NCBI GenBank assembly: GCA_963695105.1
Contig: CAVOGC010000008.1
Span: 16,030-80,029, forward strand
Direction: 5' to 3'
Source of the DNA: an uncultured Gammaproteobacteria bacterium
GTDB taxonomy: Bacteria; Pseudomonadota; Gammaproteobacteria; Competibacterales; Competibacteraceae
Length of the DNA stretch: 64,000 nucleotides
This document shows positions 12,885-60,700 of the stretch, one piece after another; within the stretch, counting starts at the first letter, position 1, and each line of letters opens with the position of its first letter. A program made the position numbers and the translations under genes. The notes under the pieces were generated by a model. It worked only from the letters and a program-made list of their open reading frames with translations. It had not been told where the DNA came from and ran no database searches.

Positions 12885-13176
12885 TGCCGAAATTCTCCTC
12901 AAGGATTTGGGGTTAAGCCTCCATCCGCCCCAAGCGACGACCCCCTCATGGGGGCACCCGGTCGCCCGTGCCGGCGAATGTGCGAAGTGTGTGCAACGCT
13001 AGAAGGTTTGCCTAAAAGGCGCGCGCTTTATAACATGGATTGTTCGGGAAAACCAAATGAACCGCCGCCCGCGGGCACTGTCCCAAACACCGCGGCCCGC
13101 TCCGGACGCCGTCCCCCGCCCATCGCCCATATGCCCGTAGACCGACGCCATGTTTCAGAAAAACCCCAGGAAATCG

Positions 13177-49614: not shown

Positions 49615-50229
49615 ACGCGACAAAAAAAGAATCGTCACGTAATGACTGACGCTGCCGGCCAGCACGAACAAATGCCAGATGCCGTGAAAATGTCTGACCT
49701 TCTCGTCAAACACATAGAAAACCAGGCCAACGGTATAAAACAGGCCGCCCGCCAACAGCCAGATGAAGCCTTCCCATGGCAGGGCTTGCAGCAGCGGTTT
49801 GAGCGCCACCAACACCAACCAGCCCATCAGCACATAAACCACCAATGACAGGACGCGATTGCCTTTTTGGGGCAGCGATTCCAGCGCGATCCCCAACACC
49901 ACCAAACCCCAAATAATACCGAATATCGTCCAACCCCAACCGCCGCGCAGGGTGACCAGGGTAAAAGGGGTATAAGTGCCGGCGATCAGGAAATAAATCG
50001 AGTAATGATCCAGCTTGTGAAAAAACCGTTTTGCCCGACCGCGCAAGCTGTGATAAAGCGTGGAAACGGTGTAAAGCAGAAATAGAGTGGTTCCGTAAAC
50101 GCTGAAGCTCACGATCTTCCACGGATCGCCCTGCCGCGCCGCCACCACCACCACGACCACCAAACCCGCCAGCGCCGCCACCGCGCCGATCAAATGGCTA
50201 ATGCTATTAAAACGCTCACCCTTGTACAT
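49600..50229 (-). CDS. hemolysin III family (HlyIII/PAQR-like) membrane protein; as sequenced the frame stays open to 48580
   Basis: MYKGERFNSISHLIG..HYSIYFLIAGTYTPF..HGIWHLFVLAGSVSHY typical HlyIII; start ATG 50229; expected C-terminus near an A7 run (49611-49617). Confidence 0.7.
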
Positions 50230-50253
50230 ACACACCGCGCCTTGCGACCATTC

Positions 50254-50344
50254 CGAATCCCGAACCCCGAACCCCGAACCCCGAACCCCGAACCCCGAAC
50301 CCCGAACCCCGAACCCCGAACCCCGAACCCCGAACCCCGAACCC
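50254..50344. repeat. heptanucleotide microsatellite (CGAACCC)x12 perfect + 1 imperfect
   Basis: Direct read: cgaatcc cgaaccc x12; between stop of topB-recQ fusion (50345) and start of hlyIII (50229). Confidence 0.95.
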
Positions 50345-53300
50345 TCAACGCTTTCTGCCCCCGCTCCGTTTGCGCCGCGCCCCACTCTTGGCCGCCGCCT
50401 CCCGCAACCGCACCGCCCCCACCTCGCCGATACCCGCTTTCCGGCCCGCCTCGGTCAGATAAACCCGGCGGAAGGGAATCACCCTGCCGTCGCGACTGAA
50501 GGCGTCCTCGCGCAATTCGAGCAGACCGGCGCCGGTCATCGCCTCCAACAGTCGTTCGAACTCCCGCCGCTCGACCCCCTCCGTCAGCCTTTCGCACAAC
50601 TGCCGGGGCGTTTGACCCTCGCGCCAGCGTAGCGCGTCCAGCACCTGCAAGGCCCGTTCGCTCTCGACCCGATTCAGCCGGCGGGTGCGCCGGATCGTCG
50701 CCGCCTCCGGCGCGCACACGTCGCAGATCCCACAGGGCTGGTCGTCGTCCCGGTCGCCGAAATGCCGCACCAGCCGGACCATGCGGCAACCGGTCGCCTG
50801 ATCGGCAAAATCCAGAATCTGCTTCAACTCGCTCAGCTTGTGCTCACGCTGCCGCTGGTAGGGCGGACACCAGCCGTCCTCGCCGCGACTGAGGTTGCCC
50901 TCGACATCGCGCCGGGCGCCGCCATGCACCAGCAGCTTTTCCACGGCGGCATCGAACTCCTCCAGCGCCATGCCCGACCGGTCGCGCAACAGCACCCGGG
51001 GTTGAGGATCGCCGCCGAGCGCCTGAAAGATCGCCGCCAGCCGCTCCGGGTCGGGGTAGCCGCGCCGGAAGAAAAACTCGTGGGTGCGCAGATCGGCATA
51101 GGAATACAGCAGGATGGCGCGGGCCGGCTGACCGTCGCGCCCGGCGCGACCGATTTCCTGGTAATAACCCTCGACGCTGCCCGGCAGGGCGGTATGAATC
51201 ACGGTGCGGATATCCGGCTTGTCGATGCCCATGCCGAACGCGATGGTGGCGACGATCACCTGCAAGCGGCTGGCGCCGAACAACCCTTGCACCCGCTCGC
51301 GCTCCTGCGGCGTCATCCCGGCGTGATAGGCGGCAGCCGGATAATTCGCCCCCAGTTCCAGCGCCAGCAACTCGGTTTCCTTGCGAGTCGGCGCGTAGAC
51401 GATGGCGGGCCGGCGATCCGGATCGGCCAGCACCCGCCCGACCGCCGCATGCCGGTCGGCCATCGGCGTTTCCACCGTCTCGACCGCCAGATTGGCGCGA
51501 CGAAAGCCGTGGATGTAGCGCATCGCCTCCGGCATGTCGAGCTGGCGCACGATGTCGTCCTGCACCAGCACGGTGGCGGTCGCGGTCAGCGCGATCACCG
51601 GCGCCGGCCGCAACAGGGGCAAATGCCGGCCCAGCATCCGGTAGTCCGGGCGGAAATCGTGACCCCACTGCGAGATGCAGTGCGCCTCGTCGACCGCGAT
51701 CAGGGCCGGCTTGCGCTTGGCCAGCATTTCGGGAAAACCGGGCACGCTCAGCCGCTCCGGCGCAATGAACAGATAATCCAGTTGGCCCTGCAAATACTCG
51801 ACGCACACCTGACGCGACGTGGCCCGGTCGCGGCCGGAGTGGATGCGTTCGGCCCGCAGGCCCAGCTCGCACAATTTGGTGACCTGATCTTCCATCAGCG
51901 CGATCAGCGGCGAAACCACCAGCGTCGTCCCCGCCCGGGCGATGCCGGGCAACTGAAAGCACAGCGACTTGCCGGCGCCGGTCGGCATCACCAGCAACAC
52001 GTCCCGGCCCTCGGTCACGGTCCGGCACACCTGTTCCTGATACGGACGAAAGGCTGGCAAGCGAAACTCGCTGTGCAGCAACTCCAGCAGACGGTCCACC
52101 GGCACCGGTTCCCGTCGCGGCGCGGCTTCTCGACTCTCCCCTCCTCCATCGATGGCGAGGGGGTTGGAGGGTGAGATCGGCCGCGCCACCGCGAACGCCT
52201 GGACCACCGCTTCGCCGACGTAACCGGCGATGGCGGTCATGAACCCGTCCAGATCTCCCTCGCCGCGCTGGATGCGCTTCAGCCGCGCTTCCCACTCGCC
52301 GGTCATGATCGGGCTTTTAATCGGTGGCTGCACCGCCTGAATCAAGCCAATGCCGCGCTCGGTGGCGTTCAGCGCTTTGCCGTCGCGAGTCAGATACCGG
52401 CGTTTGAGCAAAGTTTCGATGATGTCGGCGCGGGTGGCCGGCGTGCCCAGCCCGCTGTCCTTCATCGCCGCCGACAGCTCCTTGTCCTCCAGAGCCCGGC
52501 CGGCGGTTTCCATCGCGGTGAGCAGGGCCGCTTCGGTCAGACGCGGCGGCGGCCGGGTCTGCTTGGCCAGCTCGCGGACGTCCAGCACCCGCAACGGCTG
52601 GCCAACGGTCAACCCCGGCGGCAGGCTTTGTTCGGCCTCGTTCTCCTCGGTTGCCGCGCCAGCCTTGGCCTTGGCCTTGCGCGTGCCGGCGGCTTTTTCC
52701 GCCGCCGGCACGGTTTGCACCTCCAATACCTTCCAACCGACCTGCTCCACCGCCGTGCCGCTGCTGTGATAGCGATCGACCACGATCACGCCATCCGCTT
52801 CGCTCGTGGCGATCGCGGTGATCAGCGTGGTCACCGCCCAGAGGTGATCGTCGTGCCAGGCCATCAACAACCGGCGGCAGATCAGGTCGTAAATTTTCCG
52901 CTCGTCGGCGCTCAAGGCGGCACGCGCCGGCAGCGGGGTGGGAATGATGGCGTGATGGTCGGTCACTTTGCCGTCGTCGACGAAGCGCTTGCCCAAGAGG
53001 CGCTGGCCGCAGCCCGGCCCCAACCGGTCCTGATAGGGTGGCTGGATCGCCGCGACCACCGCGCCCAGCGTCGCCGCGACCGCGCTGGACAGATGGCGGC
53101 TGTCGGTGCGCGGGTAGCTGATCAGCTTGTGCTGCTCGTACAGCTTCTGGGCGAGGTCCAGCGTGGTCTGGGCGCTGAAGCCGTATAGCCGGTTGGCGTG
53201 GCGCTGCAATTCGGTCAGGTCGTACAGCAGGGGCGGGGCGGCGCGGCGGGTTTCGGCGGTACGGGATTCGACGGCGGCCTTTCCCGTCTGGGCGCGGGCG

Positions 53301-54151
53301 ACGATGCGCCCGGCTTCCTCGCCGTCGGCGAGCAGGCGTTTGGCCTTGGGCTCGGGGCGTTCGCCGCGAAACCAGACGCCCTGGTAGCGCGGTTCCTTCT
53401 CTTCCGGCCACTCTCCCACAGGGAGAGCCCTCACCCCCAACCCCTCTCCCGCTGGCGGGAGAGAGGAGTTTTGGGGCGCGAAAGTCGCCACCACTTCCCG
53501 GTAATCTTCAGGCACGAAAGCGCGAATCGCCAGGTCCCGCTCCACCACCACCGCCAGGGTCGGGGTCTGCACCCGTCCAACCGACAGCGCCTCATCGCCC
53601 GGCGCGCCGCAGGCCAGGGTATAGGCCCGCGACAGATTCATGCCCACCAGCCAGTCGGCCTGACTGCGGCCGCGGGCGGCGGCGGCCAGCGGATCGAACT
53701 CGCAACTGTCGCGCAAATGCTGGAAGCCCTGGCGGATGGCGTCGGGGGTCAGCGAGGAAATCCACAGCCGGCTGAACGGCTTGCGGCAACCGGCGGCTTC
53801 GTAGAGATAACGGAAAATCAATTCGCCCTCGCGGCCGGCGTCGGTGGCGCAGATCACCCGCTCGATAGCCTCGTCGTTGAGGATGCGGCGGACCGCCTCA
53901 AACTGATCGCGGGTTTGCTCGCCGACCACCAGCGGCCAGCGTTCGGGCAGCAGTGGCAACAGTTCGCGCCGCCAGCGCTTCCAGGCCGGATCGATCTCGT
54001 GCGGCTCGGCCAACCGCACCAAATGACCGACCGCCCAGGTGACGACGTAGCCGTTACCGTGCAGGAAACCTTCGCCGCGCTGGCGGGCGCCCAGCACCTT
54101 GGCGATATCTCGGGCGACGGAAGGCTTTTCGGCAACGACCGCAATACTCAT
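50345..54151 (-). CDS. DNA topoisomerase III (TopB, type IA) fused in-frame to a full-length RecQ-family helicase
   Basis: Single uninterrupted 1271-codon ORF. N-terminal 640 aa collinear with E. coli TopB (AEKPSVARDIA, GHLVRLAEP, VGRVQTPTLAVVVERD, LISYPRTDSRHL, DHHAIIPT); C-terminal 590 aa is RecQ (FRPYQEQ, MPTGAGKSLCFQLP, DEAHCISQWGHDFRPDY, helicase C, RQC zinc motif CGICDVC). Start ATG 54151 (MSIAVV) overlaps stop of upstream receiver gene as ATGA; upstream ATG 54160 also possible. Confidence 0.8.
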   Translation of the reverse strand: MSIAVVAEKPSVARDIAKVLGARQRGEGFLHGNGYVVTWAVGHLVRLAEPHEIDPAWKRWRRELLPLLPERWPLVVGEQTRDQFEAVRRILNDEAIERVICATDAGREGELIFRYLYEAAGCRKPFSRLWISSLTPDAIRQGFQHLRDSCEFDPLAAAARGRSQADWLVGMNLSRAYTLACGAPGDEALSVGRVQTPTLAVVVERDLAIRAFVPEDYREVVATFAPQNSSLPPAGEGLGVRALPVGEWPEEKEPRYQGVWFRGERPEPKAKRLLADGEEAGRIVARAQTGKAAVESRTAETRRAAPPLLYDLTELQRHANRLYGFSAQTTLDLAQKLYEQHKLISYPRTDSRHLSSAVAATLGAVVAAIQPPYQDRLGPGCGQRLLGKRFVDDGKVTDHHAIIPTPLPARAALSADERKIYDLICRRLLMAWHDDHLWAVTTLITAIATSEADGVIVVDRYHSSGTAVEQVGWKVLEVQTVPAAEKAAGTRKAKAKAGAATEENEAEQSLPPGLTVGQPLRVLDVRELAKQTRPPPRLTEAALLTAMETAGRALEDKELSAAMKDSGLGTPATRADIIETLLKRRYLTRDGKALNATERGIGLIQAVQPPIKSPIMTGEWEARLKRIQRGEGDLDGFMTAIAGYVGEAVVQAFAVARPISPSNPLAIDGGGESREAAPRREPVPVDRLLELLHSEFRLPAFRPYQEQVCRTVTEGRDVLLVMPTGAGKSLCFQLPGIARAGTTLVVSPLIALMEDQVTKLCELGLRAERIHSGRDRATSRQVCVEYLQGQLDYLFIAPERLSVPGFPEMLAKRKPALIAVDEAHCISQWGHDFRPDYRMLGRHLPLLRPAPVIALTATATVLVQDDIVRQLDMPEAMRYIHGFRRANLAVETVETPMADRHAAVGRVLADPDRRPAIVYAPTRKETELLALELGANYPAAAYHAGMTPQERERVQGLFGASRLQVIVATIAFGMGIDKPDIRTVIHTALPGSVEGYYQEIGRAGRDGQPARAILLYSYADLRTHEFFFRRGYPDPERLAAIFQALGGDPQPRVLLRDRSGMALEEFDAAVEKLLVHGGARRDVEGNLSRGEDGWCPPYQRQREHKLSELKQILDFADQATGCRMVRLVRHFGDRDDDQPCGICDVCAPEAATIRRTRRLNRVESERALQVLDALRWREGQTPRQLCERLTEGVERREFERLLEAMTGAGLLELREDAFSRDGRVIPFRRVYLTEAGRKAGIGEVGAVRLREAAAKSGARRKRSGGRKR

Positions 54152-54462
54152 AACCGGCATGGGGCCGAAGCCGGCCGGCGGTCGTTCCCTCCGGTCCCGC
54201 TATCCGGTTCATGGAGAGCGCCCCGCGCCATGGCGATCTTGACAAACTCCTCGTCCGGGACCGCGCGGGAGAAATAGACACCCTGCCCGTACTTGCAGCC
54301 CAGGATCAGGTCACAGCCGGTCGTGGCAACCATCTGGAGCGCCTCCTCGCCGTTGTCCGCCGCCATCACGGCGAACCCGTCCCACTCCAGAGCCTTTCTG
54401 GCGAGCAGGCGCATCATGGGATCGTCGTCCGCCACCAGGACACTCGCCCTTCCGTTGTCCAT
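54148..54462 (-). CDS. degenerate single-domain response-regulator receiver (internally shortened, phosphoacceptor Asp absent)
   Basis: [54 protein letters not shown] then G instead of acceptor D and only about 8 residues before a beta5/alpha5-like GVYFSRAVPDEEFVKIA; ATG overlaps HK stop (ATGA). Confidence 0.55.
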   Translation of the reverse strand: MDNGRASVLVADDDPMMRLLARKALEWDGFAVMAADNGEEALQMVATTGCDLILGCKYGQGVYFSRAVPDEEFVKIAMARGALHEPDSGTGGNDRRPASAPCRL

Positions 54463-57284
54463 CAGCTTTTCTCCAGCACGGCTCGCAGAGCGGCTTCCAC
54501 TCGGTTGAATTGTTGACACAAGGTCTGAATGGGCTCAGTGGCCCGCTCGGACTGGCCGGCGCGGACGGCGGTCTCGATCTCGTGGCAGCGGGCCGCGAAA
54601 TCCAGGGCGCCGATGTTGGTGCTGCTCGCTTTCAGGGTGTGGGCGGCGCGAATCAGCGTTTCCCGGTCCGCCGTGGCGTGGGCGGTCTCGGCGGCTCCCA
54701 CCAGCGTCCGGCCGTTGTCCAGGTACAGCCCGATCACCTTGGCCAGCAGGTCGGGTTCACCCGGCGCTTGCAGGGCGCGGATCGCCGCCAGCGCGGCCGG
54801 GTCGAGCGCGGCCGGGTCGAGCGCGGCCTGGGCGTCCGGCGCGGCCGTGGCCGGCGGAACCTCGGCGGGCGGCGATGGGGACGCGGTCTCGGGCGCGGCG
54901 GTTGCGAGCGCGCCGGGCGCCCAGCGTCGCAGTATCGCCACCAGTTCGGTTTGGTTATACGGTTTGGCGAGGAAGTCGTCCATGCCGCAGGCCAGACAGT
55001 CCTCCCGGTCGCCCTGCAGCGCATTGGCGGTCAGGGCGACGATGGGAAGGCGCCGCGCCGCCGGTTCCCGCGCGCGGAGGCGGCGAGTGGCTTCGTAGCC
55101 GTCCATGACCGGCATCTGACAATCCATCAACACCAGGTCGAAATCGGCGTCCGCCACGGCGTCCAGGGCTTCCCCGCCATCGTTGGCCAACACCACCCGA
55201 CAGCCCAGTTGCTCCAACTGCTCCAGGGTCAGGACCTGGTTCACCGGGTTGTCTTCGACCAGCAGTACGCGGGTACCGGGGAAAACCGCGGTGGGGGTGG
55301 CGTCCGGGTTGGAAGCGCCGGCTTCGACGGACTGGGACAGTCCGGCGGCGACCATCAGGGCTTCGAGCAGCTCGCGCGGTTCCACGGGCTTGTGGAGCAC
55401 CGCCTCAAAACCGGCCTGCTGGAGCTGGCGCGCGCCCTGTCGATCCGGACGGACGCACACGAGGATGACGTGAGCCTGGACCAGGCTGGGGTGATCGCGC
55501 AGAGCGCACGCCTGGGCCAAGCTTTCCGGGCTGGCCATGTCCATGGCGAGCAGCACGAAGCGGTAGGGCGCGCCGGCGGCCGCGACCGCCCGCGCCATGG
55601 ACAGGACCGCACCGCTATCGCGCGTTCGATCGGCCCGCAGGCCCAGCGCGCCCAGTTGTCCGACCAGGACCGCGCCCGCGGTCGGGTTGTCATCGACGAC
55701 CAGGGTGTTCGACTCGCGCAGGGAATCCGGCGCGACGAGCGGGGTGGCCGCCTCCAGTTCGGGCACGCTGGCCGTGAACCAGAAGGTCGAACCGTGTCCC
55801 GGCTGGCTTTCCACCCCCACCTGGCCGCCCATGAGGCGAGCGAGATCCTGACTGACCGCAAGCCCCAGACCGGTGCCGCCGAACCGGCGGGCATGGGAGC
55901 TGTCCGCCTGGGAAAAGGGCTGGAACAACTTGGGCAGCACCTCGGCGGCGATGCCCATCCCGGTGTCGCGCACGCTGAACTTGAGCACGATCCGCCGATC
56001 CTCCCCCTCTGGCGCGGCAACCCGTTCCAACCGCAGAACCACCTCGCCGCGCTGAGTAAACTTGATGGCATTGCTCACCAGGTTGGTGAGGATCTGACGC
56101 AGGCGATTGGGATCGGCGCACACCTGCCGAGGCGTCGCCGGCGTGACCTCGCAGATCAGCTCGATGTCCTTCTCCCGCGCGCGTGGGAGCAGCAAGCCCG
56201 CCACATCGAACAATAGGCTGCTGGGGTCGCACGGAATGGTCTCCAATTCCATGCGACCCGCCTCGATCTTGGAAAAATCCAGGATGTCGTTGATGACGCG
56301 CAACAGGCTGTTGGCGGAACCCCGGATGTGCTCCAGGAAACGGCGCTGGCGCTCGTTCAGGGGCGTGTCGGCGAGCAGTTCCGCCATGCCCATCACCCCG
56401 TTCATGGGCGTGCGAATCTCGTGGCTCATGGTGGCCAGGAAGCGGGATTTCGCCCGGCTGCCTTCTTCGGCGGCTTCCTTGGCCACCAACAGCTCGGCAT
56501 CCCGGGCCTGGATCTGGTTCAGCATGGTGTTGAAGCCGTCGATCAAGGTGCCGATCTCGTCGTTGGCGGTACGGGCGACGCGCAGGGAATAATCCTTGGT
56601 CTCCGACACGGCGCGCATCCGCTCGGCCAGATCGGTGATGGGCGTCGAGATCAGCCGTTGCAGGCGGGCGGCGAGCAGGGTGGCGATGGCGAAGGCCAGC
56701 ACCAGCACGGCCAGGGCGAGCAGGATGCGGTTCTTTACCGTATGCGCCAGGCGGGACAGGTCCAGATAGATTTCAAGGCTACCCACCACCTTGTCGTTGA
56801 CCCGGATGGGCTGGCCTACTTCAAGGTAATGCAGGCCGCTGGTGTACAGAAACGGGCTTGTGAAATCGGCGTCGCGATGCCGCTCTTTCGCCCCATTCGG
56901 AGATGGACCATGATCGTCGTGGCTGTCGTGGCCGCGGATTTCCAGCAGCCGGTCGGCGTGACTGGGGTTCGCGCTTTCGTAGCGGGCGAACACATGCCCA
57001 TCGGGGGTGATCAGGATGGCGGCGATCACCTCCGGCTCGCTGCCCAGGGCCGCGAGGATTTCACCGGCCGCATCGGGGTCGCGAAAGGACAGGGCCGCCG
57101 CGCTGTTGACGCCCACCACCCGGGTCAGGGAGGCGGCGTATTCCTGCTTGGCACGCCAAGTGGCGGACAGCTCGCTGATCAGCAGGGCCAGCAGGGCGAC
57201 CGCCAGTCCGATGCTGGTGGTGATCAGCGCGATGGCGATGATTTTGCGCCGGATGGACAGATTGCGCAGGAAGTTCGAATTCAT
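54462..57284 (-). CDS. hybrid sensor histidine kinase/response regulator (TM-periplasmic sensor-HAMP-HisKA-HATPase-REC-REC-Hpt)
   Basis: 940 aa; HisKA H-box [18 protein letters not shown], HATPase N/G boxes, two receiver domains (LVVDDNP.., [25 protein letters not shown]), C-terminal Hpt. Confidence 0.9.
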
Positions 57285-57924: not shown

Positions 57925-59925
57925 TCAAAAGCGCCAGTTCACCATCAAATAAAATTCCCGGGAGATGAGATAGGCATCGCTGGCGGCGATCGCGGGGGTC
58001 CCGTATTCCAAGTGGCTGGGTCCCAGCAGATTGCGGCCAACCAGCGCCAGCTCCAGATCCTGGTCGGCCCGCCAGCCCAGGCGCGCGTCGGCGGTGAAGT
58101 AGGCTTTGACGGCGTAGGCGGGCAGCTCGCCGACATAGCGCGCTTGCACGTCCAGTGCCAGATCGCGACCGAGGTCCAGATTCGAGATGAGGCTGAATTG
58201 GTGACGTGGGGATTCGCCCTCGGCCCGCTTCGGGGACAGTTCGGTATTGTCCGGCTTCGGGTCGAGGTCGATGCTCAAATAGGAATAGGCCGCCCGCAGA
58301 CGCCACGCATCCCACGGGCGGTAGTCGGCGGCCAGCTCGAAGCCGTGGGTCCAGCCTTGCAGGTTGTTGCCCACCTTGCTCGGCCAAAGCAGGTAGGGGG
58401 ACGGCAGGGGCACGAGCGTCGGCGAACCGATCATGTCGATGGAAACCAGCCGGTCGTAGTCGCTCAGGAAAGCGGTGACGTCCAGACCCAGTTGGGGCGT
58501 CACTGGCAAGCGGTAACCAAGCTCGTAGCTGGTGAGGAGCTCGGCATCCAAATTGGCGTTGCCTCTGGACAGAATCACCAGCGGCAGATCCGAAGTCGCC
58601 GGGCTGGGCGGGATCAGCGAAATCAAAGTCCCGCTGTCCTCGATCAGGGAGGGCGTGCGCACGGCGCGGGAGATCGCGGCCCACAGGGTGCCGCGACCCG
58701 GCGGCGACCAGCGCAACCGGGCCGATGGCTGCCATTCCAGGCCGGTGAAATCGTTGTGTTCCGCTTTCACGCCCAAGGTCAGATAGAGCTGGTCCGGCAT
58801 CAGGGTGATGTCGTCCTGAACGAAGGCGCTGAACAACTAGTCGGTCCGGCGCGGATCGGCGATGGCGGTGGGGGCGATTGCATCGACATCCAGCCTGACT
58901 GCTCGATAACTCAGTCCGGCGACCAGATTGTGCGCCCCCATAGTGGGAAACTGGTGGCAATAAGCCAGATCCAGCGTATCCACGACCGCCTCGGCGGCGT
59001 TGCCGACAACCTGCCATTTGTCCAGGCTGAAACGGTGGATGTAGCTCTGAAACACATCCTTGGCGCCGTCCGCCGAAACCGTTTCCCAGTAGCCCAGCAG
59101 ATGACCGCCGCTGTACTGGCGTTCGCTACCCACGCGCTCGCGATAAAGCTCGCCCTGGACCATCAGGGCGGCGTCGCCCAAATCCCAATCGCCGCGAAAA
59201 CCGCTGCGCCCGCCGCTCCAGTCCAAATCGGGGGCTTGACTCGGAAAGGCTTGTTCCAGGCCATCCTGCTGGTGGACCTTGGCATAGAGGCGAGCATGAC
59301 CGCTCTCCCCGAGCTTGAAGCCGGTGCGCGCCACCAGTTCGGACTGCTGGTCGCCCCCCACCGCGCTCACCAGCGTGCCTTGGGTATCCTCGGCGGGCTT
59401 GGTAATGATGTTGATGACGCCGTTGACCGCGTTCGCGCCCCAGGTGGCGCCACCGGGACCGCGCACCACTTCGATGCGCTCCACATCCCGCAGGACGATA
59501 TTCTGCTCGTCCCAGATCACGCCGGAGAACAGGGGCGTGTAGAGGCTGCGGCCGTCCACCATCACCAGGAGTTTGTTGGCGAACTGGTTGTTGAAGCCGC
59601 GCGAGCTCACCGCCCATTCCGAGGCGCTGAGGCGCGCCACGTCGAGACCCGGCACCGTGCACAGCAGCTCTGGCAGGGTGGTGGCGCCGGAACGGCGGAT
59701 ATCCTCGGCGGTGATCACATACACCGCCGCCGCCGTGTCTTCCAGACGTTCCAGGCGGTTCGAGGCAATGGAGACGCGCAAATCGGCCAGTTCGTCCAGA
59801 CTCATCTGTTTGAGGGCGCTCAAACTGTCCGCGCCGGCGTTGGCGCTGGCCAAGACAAGGGCGAACCGCAGGGCCAGCGCCGGTCCGCCACCGGAGCGCG
59901 GGATCGAGCGGTCGTTTCTGTTCAT
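57925..59925 (-). pseudogene. TonB-dependent receptor interrupted by a single in-frame TAG (58837-58839)
   Basis: ORF 58837..59925 = signal peptide + plug domain; ORF 57925..58836 = rest of beta-barrel ending in aromatic F; both in the same frame, separated only by TAG within ACTAGT (..ADPRRTD * LFSAFVQDD..); combined length 666 aa. Confidence 0.75.
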
Positions 59926-60036: not shown

Positions 60037-60313
60037 CACCGCTCGCCGCGCGACCTCAACCCGATCGAGTTTAGCGCGCACGCTTTCGATGGGCTCGGCG
60101 GCCCGCTCGGGCTGGCCGGACGCGGGCGGCCAGCGGATTGAGCTTACAACTGTCGCGTAAATGTTGGAAGCCCTGGCGGATGGCGTCGGGGATCAGCGCG
60201 GAAATCCATCGCCGGCTGAACGGCTTGCGGCAACCGGCGGCTTGGTGGAACCAGCGGAAGATCGACTCGCCCTCGCGGACGGAAGGCTTTTCGGCAACGA
60301 CCGCAATGCTCAC
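60037..60313 (-). pseudogene. scrambled gene remnants: Hpt/HK C-terminus-like fragment (60037-60125) joined to internally deleted topB N-terminal fragment (60126-60313)
   Basis: 60278-60313 encodes MSIAVVAEKPSV (= TopB N-terminus at 54125-54160); 60126-60270 about 85% identical to 53690-53830 of topB; 60037-60125 encodes ..GQPERAAEPIESVRAKLDRVEVARRAVLE, paralogous to HK C-terminus ..[29 protein letters not shown]. Confidence 0.6.
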
Positions 60314-60322
60314 GGCCCGCGC

Positions 60323-60700
60323 TCAGTCCGCCAGCGCCGGTTTCCAGGTCCACTGTTCGCCCGGCTCCGCACCGGTCGCGGCCCGCCAGCTCGACTCCAA
60401 ATCTTCTTCGACCCGCTCCACCACCGCGCCGTCCAACCGCTTCTGCCGGACAAAAGCCCGCAACATCTCCAGAATCCGGGCCGGGGACAGCGGCTGCCGG
60501 TAAGGCCGCTGTTGCGCCAGTGCCTGAAACACGTCGGCCACGGCGATGATCCGTATTTCCAGGGTCAGCTCCGCGCCGCCGCGATGGAACGGATAGCCCT
60601 GGCCATCGAGCGTCTCGTGATGGTAGGCGACCCAGACCGCGATGTCCTCCAGACCGTCGATGCCGCGCAGGATCTGGGATGTGATAAGGCGCCTGATTGC
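60323..60700 (-). pseudogene. C-terminal fragment of an HD-GYP phosphodiesterase (no HD motif/N-terminal half)
   Basis: ..VAYHHETLDGQGYPFHRGGAELTLEIRIIAVADVFQALAQQRPYRQ.. = HD-GYP C-terminal signature; upstream part of track ORF 60323..61309 is frame-overlap with mtnA. Confidence 0.5.

Follow-up and report, generated by a model that had tools for sequence, protein, structure and literature searches.

RecQ-family helicases and topoisomerase III (Topo III) form a partnership that is conserved from bacteria to humans (BLM-TOP3A), and the hand-over of DNA from helicase to topoisomerase is still being studied in multi-protein complexes. Type IA topoisomerases (topo IA) require single-stranded DNA and RecQ generates it. 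In E. coli, RecQ and Topo III (TopB) act jointly on Holliday junctions and on converging forks (PMC2647321), and the interaction reported for the pair is functional, not physical (PMC3905885). A helicase-topo IA fusion is called unique to hyperthermophiles, in the form of reverse gyrase, in one paper (PMC7245102). Here we describe a gene that joins a Topo III to a RecQ helicase in a single chain. It lies in a 64,000-nucleotide stretch of DNA, hereafter the window, from an uncultured member of the Competibacteraceae (Gammaproteobacteria; contig CAVOGC010000008.1, positions 16,030 to 80,029), and coordinates below are positions in this window. We found that the fusion is genuine. Moreover, both halves look catalytically active, since family cut-offs are passed and catalytic residues are kept.

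The preliminary description of this DNA claimed a single in-frame TopB-RecQ polypeptide of 1271 amino acids (aa), and the open reading frame (ORF) bears this out. It comprises 1271 codons, begins with ATG, has no internal stops and ends in a stop codon at 50345-50347 (ORF list), and its G+C content at third codon positions (GC3) is 0.72-0.94 across all 50-codon blocks. Because this coding-type GC3 is found in every block, including that of the linker, the frame is continuous and coding throughout. Profile searches with the 1271-aa translation, which had been proposed as a check, matched Toprim, Topoisom_bac, DEAD, Helicase_C and RecQ_Zn_bind (all Pfam). The product itself is probably 1268 aa long and starts at M4, because the ATG at codon 4 fits the consensus N-terminus of the relatives (MxIAVVAEKP) and the database protein P0001, which is 100% identical to the window protein, has a length of 1268 aa. 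This second ATG and the TGA of the upstream ORF share bases, as ATGA. No LexA-type box (CTGT-N8-ACAG) was found in the whole window and no sigma-70-like promoter in 50000-54800, where the lone terminator-like site falls inside the fusion ORF but on the other strand.

The N-terminal half scores above the curated NCBIfam cut-offs for NF005829 (DNA topoisomerase 3; 640.1 bits vs 597) and for topB TIGR01056 (549.9 bits vs 515.75). Residues 4-636 of the 653 residues of E. coli Topo III align to it (E = 1e-93), so that the collinearity with E. coli TopB from TOPRIM through the catalytic region, claimed earlier up to about residue 600, is upheld. This alignment identifies the Topo III catalytic residues of the window protein as E11, D107, E111, Y349 and R351. 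E11, D107, G109 and E111 are invariant or nearly so among fused homologues, and Y349 is kept in 55 of 57 fused ORFs, the remaining two having a gap or an X at this position. E. coli Topo III residues 502-519, which we take to be the decatenation loop in that numbering, correspond by alignment only, and with a one-residue gap, to aa 551-567, and D559, L562 and S563 of this segment are invariant in the family. Topo homology stops at about residue 655 and is followed by the linker and RecQ; a C-terminal DNA-binding tail or zinc ribbons of TopB's own are missing. What had been described as a complete TopB is thus a full catalytic core, with RecQ in place of TopB's own C-terminal tail.

The C-terminal half passes the NCBIfam model recQ_fam TIGR00614 (371.1 bits vs a cut-off of 219.8) and fails the canonical recQ equivalogs TIGR01389 (424.8 bits vs 640.2) and NF008279 (341.7 vs 1015); judged by these profiles it is a divergent RecQ subfamily. 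E. coli RecQ aligns to it over residues 15-345 and 366-404, including the PCGNCDIC segment (E = 6e-86). The motifs named at the outset were all located: MPTGAGKS at 725-732 (Walker A K731), DEAH at 824-827 and the CxxC zinc motif, as CGICDVC, at 1143-1149, the fourth Cys being at 1125. An aromatic-rich loop, SQWGHDFR, occupies 830-837. R1005 and R1008 of motif VI are invariant in 57/57 fused ORFs, and all four zinc cysteines, which align to the zinc-motif segments of E. coli RecQ, are invariant in the family. Inside the zinc module, between helicase lobe 2 and the zinc motif, the alignment to E. coli RecQ has a gap (345 to 366) while the window protein runs from 1024 to 1107, and the inserted segment is predicted to form three helices and a beta-hairpin (helices 359-368, 376-383 and 387-399 and strands 403-405 and 411-413 of the model; +679 gives the protein numbering).

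The AlphaFold model of residues 680-1271 has a predicted local distance difference test score (pLDDT) of 86.9 and a predicted template modelling score (pTM) of 0.81. In Foldseek its nearest structures are 4TMU, 1OYW and 4Q47, all of them catalytic cores of bacterial RecQ (E = 1e-36 to 1e-34), and it aligns over ~592-601 columns with the whole 511-516-residue cores of 4TMU and 1OYW (E = 8.8e-37). Residues 1164-1235 have the HHH-beta-beta topology of a predicted winged helix (pLDDT ~90), a region aligned only within the whole-core Foldseek match, and no Pfam match to RQC was obtained in the window protein; the RQC domain of the preliminary description is kept as a predicted winged helix and not as a Pfam assignment. 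There is likewise no Pfam match to HRDC (PF00570) in the window protein. Among the listed relatives, PF00570 is found only in fused proteins that are at most 65% identical, and a basic tail occupies its position here. The RecQ half, described as complete, is complete in its catalytic core and lacks HRDC in this copy.

Between the two halves, AlphaFold ends the last topo helix (637-658) and resumes with the first RecQ helix (688-698), with pLDDT <50 at 662-679; this disordered stretch of ~30 aa agrees with the linker of ~35 aa described before. Over 57 orthologues the linker ranges from 32 to 290 aa in length and its sequence is unconserved. Its ratio of nonsynonymous to synonymous substitution rates (dN/dS) is 0.15, with dS saturated. 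A linker that is long, variable and disordered argues for tethering of the two halves over rigid allosteric coupling of the reverse-gyrase kind.

The same architecture is found well beyond this genome. A search of a 5.8-billion-protein collection listed 120 relatives, and among these matches 120/120 are fused, several on contigs >3 Mb. When one-genome-per-species (GTDB) assemblies were scanned, ~65 of the best 80 loci considered were fused (counted from the listing), and a single uninterrupted ORF with both halves was present in 56 species genomes. By lengths and matched ranges, ~50 fused clusters are among the top 50%-identity representatives. The topo-RecQ junction is at the same position in all homologues. 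In both halves the catalytic residues show no variation across 73 fused homologues, and they are kept in nearly all 57 species ORFs. Pairwise identities of the two halves are correlated (r = 0.85, 1596 pairs; means 0.62 and 0.63), and in a comparison with the nearest species representative (L001) the topo half and the RecQ half each have a dN/dS of 0.12. Both halves are under purifying selection and co-evolving. Taken together, the recurrence, the residue conservation, the correlated identities and the equal dN/dS point to one old fusion that has been maintained by selection on both activities. The search for further full-length two-part proteins that had been suggested thus returned many of them. 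The finding that was to refute the claim, ubiquitous and already characterised two-domain homologues, was not made: homologues are numerous in RefSeq and UniRef, but no characterised one was found.

Table 1. Features of the topB-recQ fusion gene and its product (positions in the window)
Feature	Position	Strand	Basis
Whole topB-recQ fusion ORF	50345..54160	-	ORF list; domain matches in both halves; identical protein P0001
Probable true start codon M4, ATGA overlap with upstream ORF stop	54149..54151	-	Sequence ...ccATGccggttATGAgt...
TOPRIM domain, aa 8-136, with E11 and D107-A-G109-R-E111	53753..54139	-	Pfam PF01751, 39.5 bits
Topoisomerase IA core, aa 156-641, with decatenation-loop-aligned segment aa 551-567	52238..53695	-	Pfam PF01131, E = 1.5e-100
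Catalytic tyrosine Y349 (SYPRTDS)	53114..53116	-	Aligned to E. coli Topo III active-site segment LITYPRSD
Disordered Pro/Ala/Gly-rich linker, aa 659-687	52100..52186	-	AlphaFold: no secondary structure between flanking helices
RecQ helicase lobe 1, aa 705-863: K731, DEAH 824-827, SQWGHDFR 830-837	51572..52048	-	Pfam PF00270
RecQ helicase lobe 2, aa 915-1010, motif VI QEIGRAGRDG 1001-1010	51131..51418	-	Pfam PF00271
Family-specific insertion, ~55 aa, aa 1038-1092	50885..51049	-	E. coli RecQ alignment break; AlphaFold model
RecQ zinc-binding module, aa 1102-1149: C1125, C1143, C1146, C1149	50714..50857	-	Pfam PF16124, 38.7 bits
Predicted winged-helix domain, aa 1164-1235, RecQ RQC/WH position	50456..50671	-	AlphaFold topology; Foldseek
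Short basic disordered C-terminal tail, aa 1250-1271, ...AAKSGARRKRSGGRKR	50348..50413	-	Sequence; pLDDT <50 over last 15 residues

Carriers of the fusion are chiefly Acidobacteriota (Thermoanaerobaculia, Bryobacterales and Terriglobia) and Myxococcota, with further examples in Oligoflexia and in Competibacteraceae, the family of the window. In a neighbour-joining (NJ) tree without bootstrap the Competibacteraceae fusions adjoin those of Thermoanaerobaculia, which suggests that Competibacteraceae acquired the fusion horizontally. Among unfused TopB proteins, those of the Clostridia type come nearest (41-44% identical). Fusion genes on contigs labelled Acetobacteraceae (L022) and Solirubrobacteraceae (L004) nest within Acidobacteriota clades, and L022 has flanking genes in common with Acidobacteriaceae loci; these two labels are probably binning errors, which are likelier than wide transfer. 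Fusion proteins are present in RefSeq and UniRef under generic names that refer to one half only. In sequence databases the family is established, and its architecture is neither rare nor confined to this genome. Searches of the full-text literature, in a collection mostly without subscription-journal content, turned up no paper on a Topo III-RecQ fusion, and such a fusion is not mentioned in a topoisomerase phylogenomics review. As far as these searches reach, the family is uncharacterised. The earlier statement that this is not a described family holds with respect to the publications searched, and has to be relaxed with respect to databases, in which the proteins are numerous and a PADLOC profile labelled 'DpdF' (1499 positions) covers the architecture.

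RecQ proteins of the fusion's subfamily also exist on their own. These are 650-710 aa long and consist of helicase, zinc, winged-helix and HRDC parts (e.g. P0368 and P0375), and they are 51-61% identical to the RecQ half over ~690-1190, including the insertion and the start of the winged helix, but the topo domain is absent. Many such stand-alone RecQ-type proteins (in the range P0277-P0394), without a Pfam topoisomerase domain, carry the JGI names 'DNA topoisomerase-3' or 'DNA topoisomerase III', presumably by annotation transfer from fused relatives. No topB was found beside the stand-alone recQ genes in the two long contigs examined. A split topB/recQ precursor was considered as an origin of the fusion and rejected: these two stand-alone recQ genes have no adjacent topB, a topB-recQ pair in Listeria is in reversed order, and P0174, 42 nucleotides (nt) from a contig end, is uninformative. 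Two further proteins have a TopB without a helicase motor, as read by eye from their sequences. In P0178 (713 aa) TopB is followed by a segment resembling the winged-helix region of the fusion, and in P0176 (919 aa) by a long basic linker and an HRDC-like end. Both suggest loss of the motor from fused ancestors.

We consider it probable that the fusion protein is a coupled unwinding and strand-passage enzyme for the decatenation or dissolution of recombination or replication intermediates. Its architecture, intact motifs, purifying selection, co-evolution, cross-phylum recurrence and chromosomal context are as observed; its substrates, coupling and cellular role may be pictured as follows. The RecQ part would be a 3'-5' helicase core that opens duplexes, or branch-migrates joint molecules, at the expense of ATP, and this unwinding would supply the single-stranded DNA for the type IA topoisomerase. 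The tethered Topo III part would cleave one strand via Y349 and pass a second strand through the gate, such that hemicatenanes, late replication intermediates or double Holliday junctions would be unlinked without crossover. Fusion would keep the two activities in a 1:1 ratio and at a high local concentration, in place of the eukaryotic BLM/Sgs1-TOP3-RMI1 contacts, and the flexible tether would guarantee that helicase and topoisomerase are co-localised. We infer this 'dissolvasome' function from the known RecQ-Topo III partnership and from the intactness of both families here. A further proposal, which we put forward tentatively and with more doubt than conviction, is that the protein is a self-sufficient single-chain dissolvasome that needs no RMI1-like partner, outperforms the separate enzymes and maybe replaces stand-alone RecQ and TopB in its carriers. 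Were this so, it would be an undescribed enzyme class and the first natural covalent RecQ-Topo III machine.

Several points weigh against a coupled dissolution enzyme. The TOPRIM motif of the family is an invariant DxGxE, with Gly109 at the middle position, where E. coli Topo III has DxDxE; we take the DxGxE form to be that of Bacillus-type TopB. The full-length AlphaFold model (residues 1-1200, 73-sequence alignment) has a pTM of 0.45, with low confidence in the topo parts 214-309 and 437-555; the relative orientation of the topo and RecQ halves is thus not readable from it, and it was not used for docking. The searchable literature holds no biochemical or genetic data on any family member. 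The missing HRDC counts here too, since for BLM-TopoIIIalpha this domain is reported to be critical in determining the dissolution of double Holliday junctions (PMC2995041).

Among other explanations, one is a mesophilic enzyme resembling reverse gyrase, in which the helicase half would serve as an ATP-driven duplex-opening switch and the topo IA half would change linking number directionally, by positive supercoiling or active relaxation. The ingredients are the same, a superfamily 2 (SF2) ATPase and a topo IA in one chain, and TIGR01054, the model for reverse gyrase, gives a weak match (81.8 bits). When a helicase is paired with a topo IA able to relax negative supercoils only, closed DNA can be left with net positive supercoils. 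However, the 81.8 bits compare with a cut-off of 471.7 and come from the topo part only (residues 82-211), the domain order is reversed, and the helicase half has the full RecQ core, aromatic loop, zinc module and winged helix included, where reverse gyrase has a stripped helicase-like module. A disordered linker of 32-290 aa is also hard to square with tight inter-domain coupling, and we regard this explanation as unlikely. Slightly less likely again is that the gene is part of a mobile element or of anti-phage defence, for example as the DpdF-type helicase from a 7-deazaguanine DNA-modification island or as a TopB of the plasmid type, and has no housekeeping role in genome maintenance. The PADLOC 'DpdF' profile of 1499 positions, PDLC02865, matches the whole protein (1588 bits), and the RecQ half is also hit by further PADLOC 'DpdF' profiles; conjugative plasmids very often carry TopB homologues, with matches on at least 5000 plasmid records, among which 3503 are conjugative; and the position of Competibacteraceae next to Thermoanaerobaculia in the NJ tree suggests horizontal transfer. 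Yet the curated NCBIfam DpdF equivalog NF041063 reaches 196.4 bits against a cut-off of 550, and the ~610-position 'DpdF' profiles PDLC02864 and PDLC02861 align to the helicase core only (E = 1e-139 and 1e-116), so the PADLOC label may be over-broad. The DpdF identity was set aside on the failure of the curated model and the absence of a Dpd cluster at the loci.

The genomic context speaks against a mobile or defence role as well. When the ORFs lying up to 7 kb to either side of 57 fused loci were clustered all against all, no conserved neighbour gene, no dpdA-K cluster and no RMI1-like or other conserved partner emerged; the clusters that did form are generic and shared by close relatives only (by sequence, an ABC ATPase, an aminotransferase, a threonine-dehydratase-like protein and a large protein of outer-membrane type). 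The genes around the fusion, in the window as in close relatives, are ones expected of an ordinary chromosome (HlyIII, hydrolases, the rib operon, nusB and nrdR). No fused copy was found by tblastn on 72,556 plasmids or 50,697 phages, which gave single-half matches only, and no plasmid or phage record covers >=80% of the fusion query. The fusion is a stand-alone chromosomal gene. It is quite improbable, too, that one half is degenerate and non-catalytic, with the RecQ part merely targeting or loading Topo III or the topo part acting as a DNA clamp. The motor-less TopB variants P0178 and P0176 keep RecQ-type C-terminal DNA-binding modules, by eye, and so suggest DNA targeting among the contributions of the C-terminal half, but all catalytic residues of both halves are conserved across phyla and dN/dS is equally low in both. 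An artefact, whether through chimeric assembly or through a stop or frameshift overlooked between two neighbouring genes, can practically be dismissed. The window does come from a metagenome-type assembly with several broken genes in the flanking region, and in a few long-read metagenome-assembled genome (MAG) loci (L049, L053, L060 and L076) the gene is split over different frames. Against this, the same single ORF recurs in 56 independent species genomes, the 120 listed protein clusters are fused without exception, some on contigs >=3 Mb, the linker has coding-type GC3, and the junction is identically placed in every homologue.

Around the gene, the closest relative (90% identity) has the order MtnA, HD-GYP protein, fusion, HlyIII and membrane transporter (Mem_trans), and onward two alpha/beta hydrolases, a TPR protein, a metallo-beta-lactamase-fold protein, nusB with riboflavin genes, and nrdR, an ordinary chromosomal neighbourhood of riboflavin synthesis genes, nusB, nrdR and SHMT. 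In a 77% relative, a cassette of TonB receptor, DUF4154, CHASE8 kinase and REC-PAS-GGDEF-EAL genes stands between the HD-GYP gene and the fusion. The window has the layout of the 77% relative, with the cassette present, but several of its genes are broken, and the fusion gene is intact among these broken upstream neighbours. Just upstream of it, at 54148-54519 (-), a 123-aa ORF is the remnant of a 795-aa REC-PAS-GGDEF-EAL protein, with residues 1-54 joined to 764-793 of the relative's protein; the stop of this ORF overlaps the probable start of the fusion (ATGA). A TonB-dependent receptor at 57925-59925 (-), a single 678-aa protein in relatives, is broken by one in-frame TAG at 58837-58839, which may be an assembly or sequencing error, and at 60326-60682 (-) an HDOD/HD-GYP protein is reduced to residues 302-420 of 420.

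About 6 kb upstream of the intact copy, at 60117-60312 (-), lies a decayed 5'-end relic of the same topB-recQ gene. Its translation, 'SIAVVAEKPSV|REGESIFRWFHQAAGCRKPFSRRWISALIPDAIRQGFQHLRDSCKLNPL', corresponds to residues 5-15 joined to 110-166, with an internal deletion of ~94 aa, and at the DNA level it matches 53673-53838 with 86% identity and 54116-54150 with 97%. The relic directly follows the HD-GYP gene, at the site where the intact fusion of the closest relative begins, and is absent from four related loci. It is probably a trace of the receptor/kinase cassette having inserted at the 5' end of the fusion gene.

On the other side, 13 perfect copies of the heptamer GGGGTTC (coding strand) form a microsatellite at 50253-50345, which runs from the fusion stop codon and occupies most of the gap between the fusion and the HlyIII gene. 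It occurs once in the window and is absent from all related loci fetched. Its four-G runs spaced by TTC have the form of a G-quadruplex (G4) motif. RecQ helicases are known G4 unwinders (e.g. PDB entry 6CRM), and a link between this repeat and the RecQ half is speculation. Elsewhere in the window, a t44 RNA (RF00127; 69.2 bits vs 44) at 12912-13002 (-) is the sole Rfam match above its gathering score, and no tRNA genes are found in the 64 kb.

A natural single-chain version of the RecQ-Topo III pair with a fixed 1:1 ratio would suit structural and single-molecule studies. There is also a consequence for annotation, since fusion proteins are named after one half and their stand-alone RecQ relatives are mislabelled in one large resource. 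The surprise is moderate: the family is already public in many species, and the fusing of functional partners is a familiar evolutionary pattern.

Compared with E. coli RecQ and TopB, the fusion unites the same two enzyme families, with the active-site Tyr and the decatenation-loop segment aligned, in a single polypeptide instead of two proteins. Its topo half is nearer to the NF005829/PRK07726 type of TopB, with DxGxE, than to E. coli TopB, and its RecQ half differs from E. coli RecQ by the ~55-aa insertion in the zinc module and, in the window copy, by the lack of HRDC. In Listeria, recQ and a 'DNA topoisomerase III' gene are adjacent on the same strand, 23 nt apart, an independent link between the two functions. 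There the proteins are separate, ~39% identical to the fusion and encoded in the opposite order, recQ and then topB. This pair (L081; Listeria monocytogenes NZ_LR134400.1, 2980-6929) is filed as a 594-kb 'plasmid' in PLSDB, and another Listeria match as a 2.9-Mb 'plasmid'; both records are probably chromosomal sequence.

The presumed functional analogue of the fusion is the eukaryotic BLM/Sgs1-TOP3(A)-RMI1 complex, in which a RecQ-family helicase is likewise physically coupled to a Topo III-type enzyme. In that complex the coupling is non-covalent, through the disordered N-terminus of the helicase, and the OB-fold protein RMI1 is needed, whereas in the fusion it is covalent, the helicase N-terminus being joined to the topo C-terminus. 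The hosts of the fusion (activated-sludge Competibacteraceae, and Acidobacteriota and Myxococcota of soil and peat) are, we presume, mesophiles. Reverse gyrase is the only single-chain helicase-topo IA enzyme that we found in the literature. The fusion differs from it in having a true RecQ core, not a helicase-like module, and a flexible, variable linker. By Pfam order its topo IA comes first and its helicase second, the opposite of reverse gyrase (PMC2504306), as the preliminary description had it. The fusion shows that bacteria have repeatedly kept both activities physically coupled, which qualifies the claim, cited at the outset (PMC7245102), that reverse gyrase is unique as a helicase-topo IA fusion.

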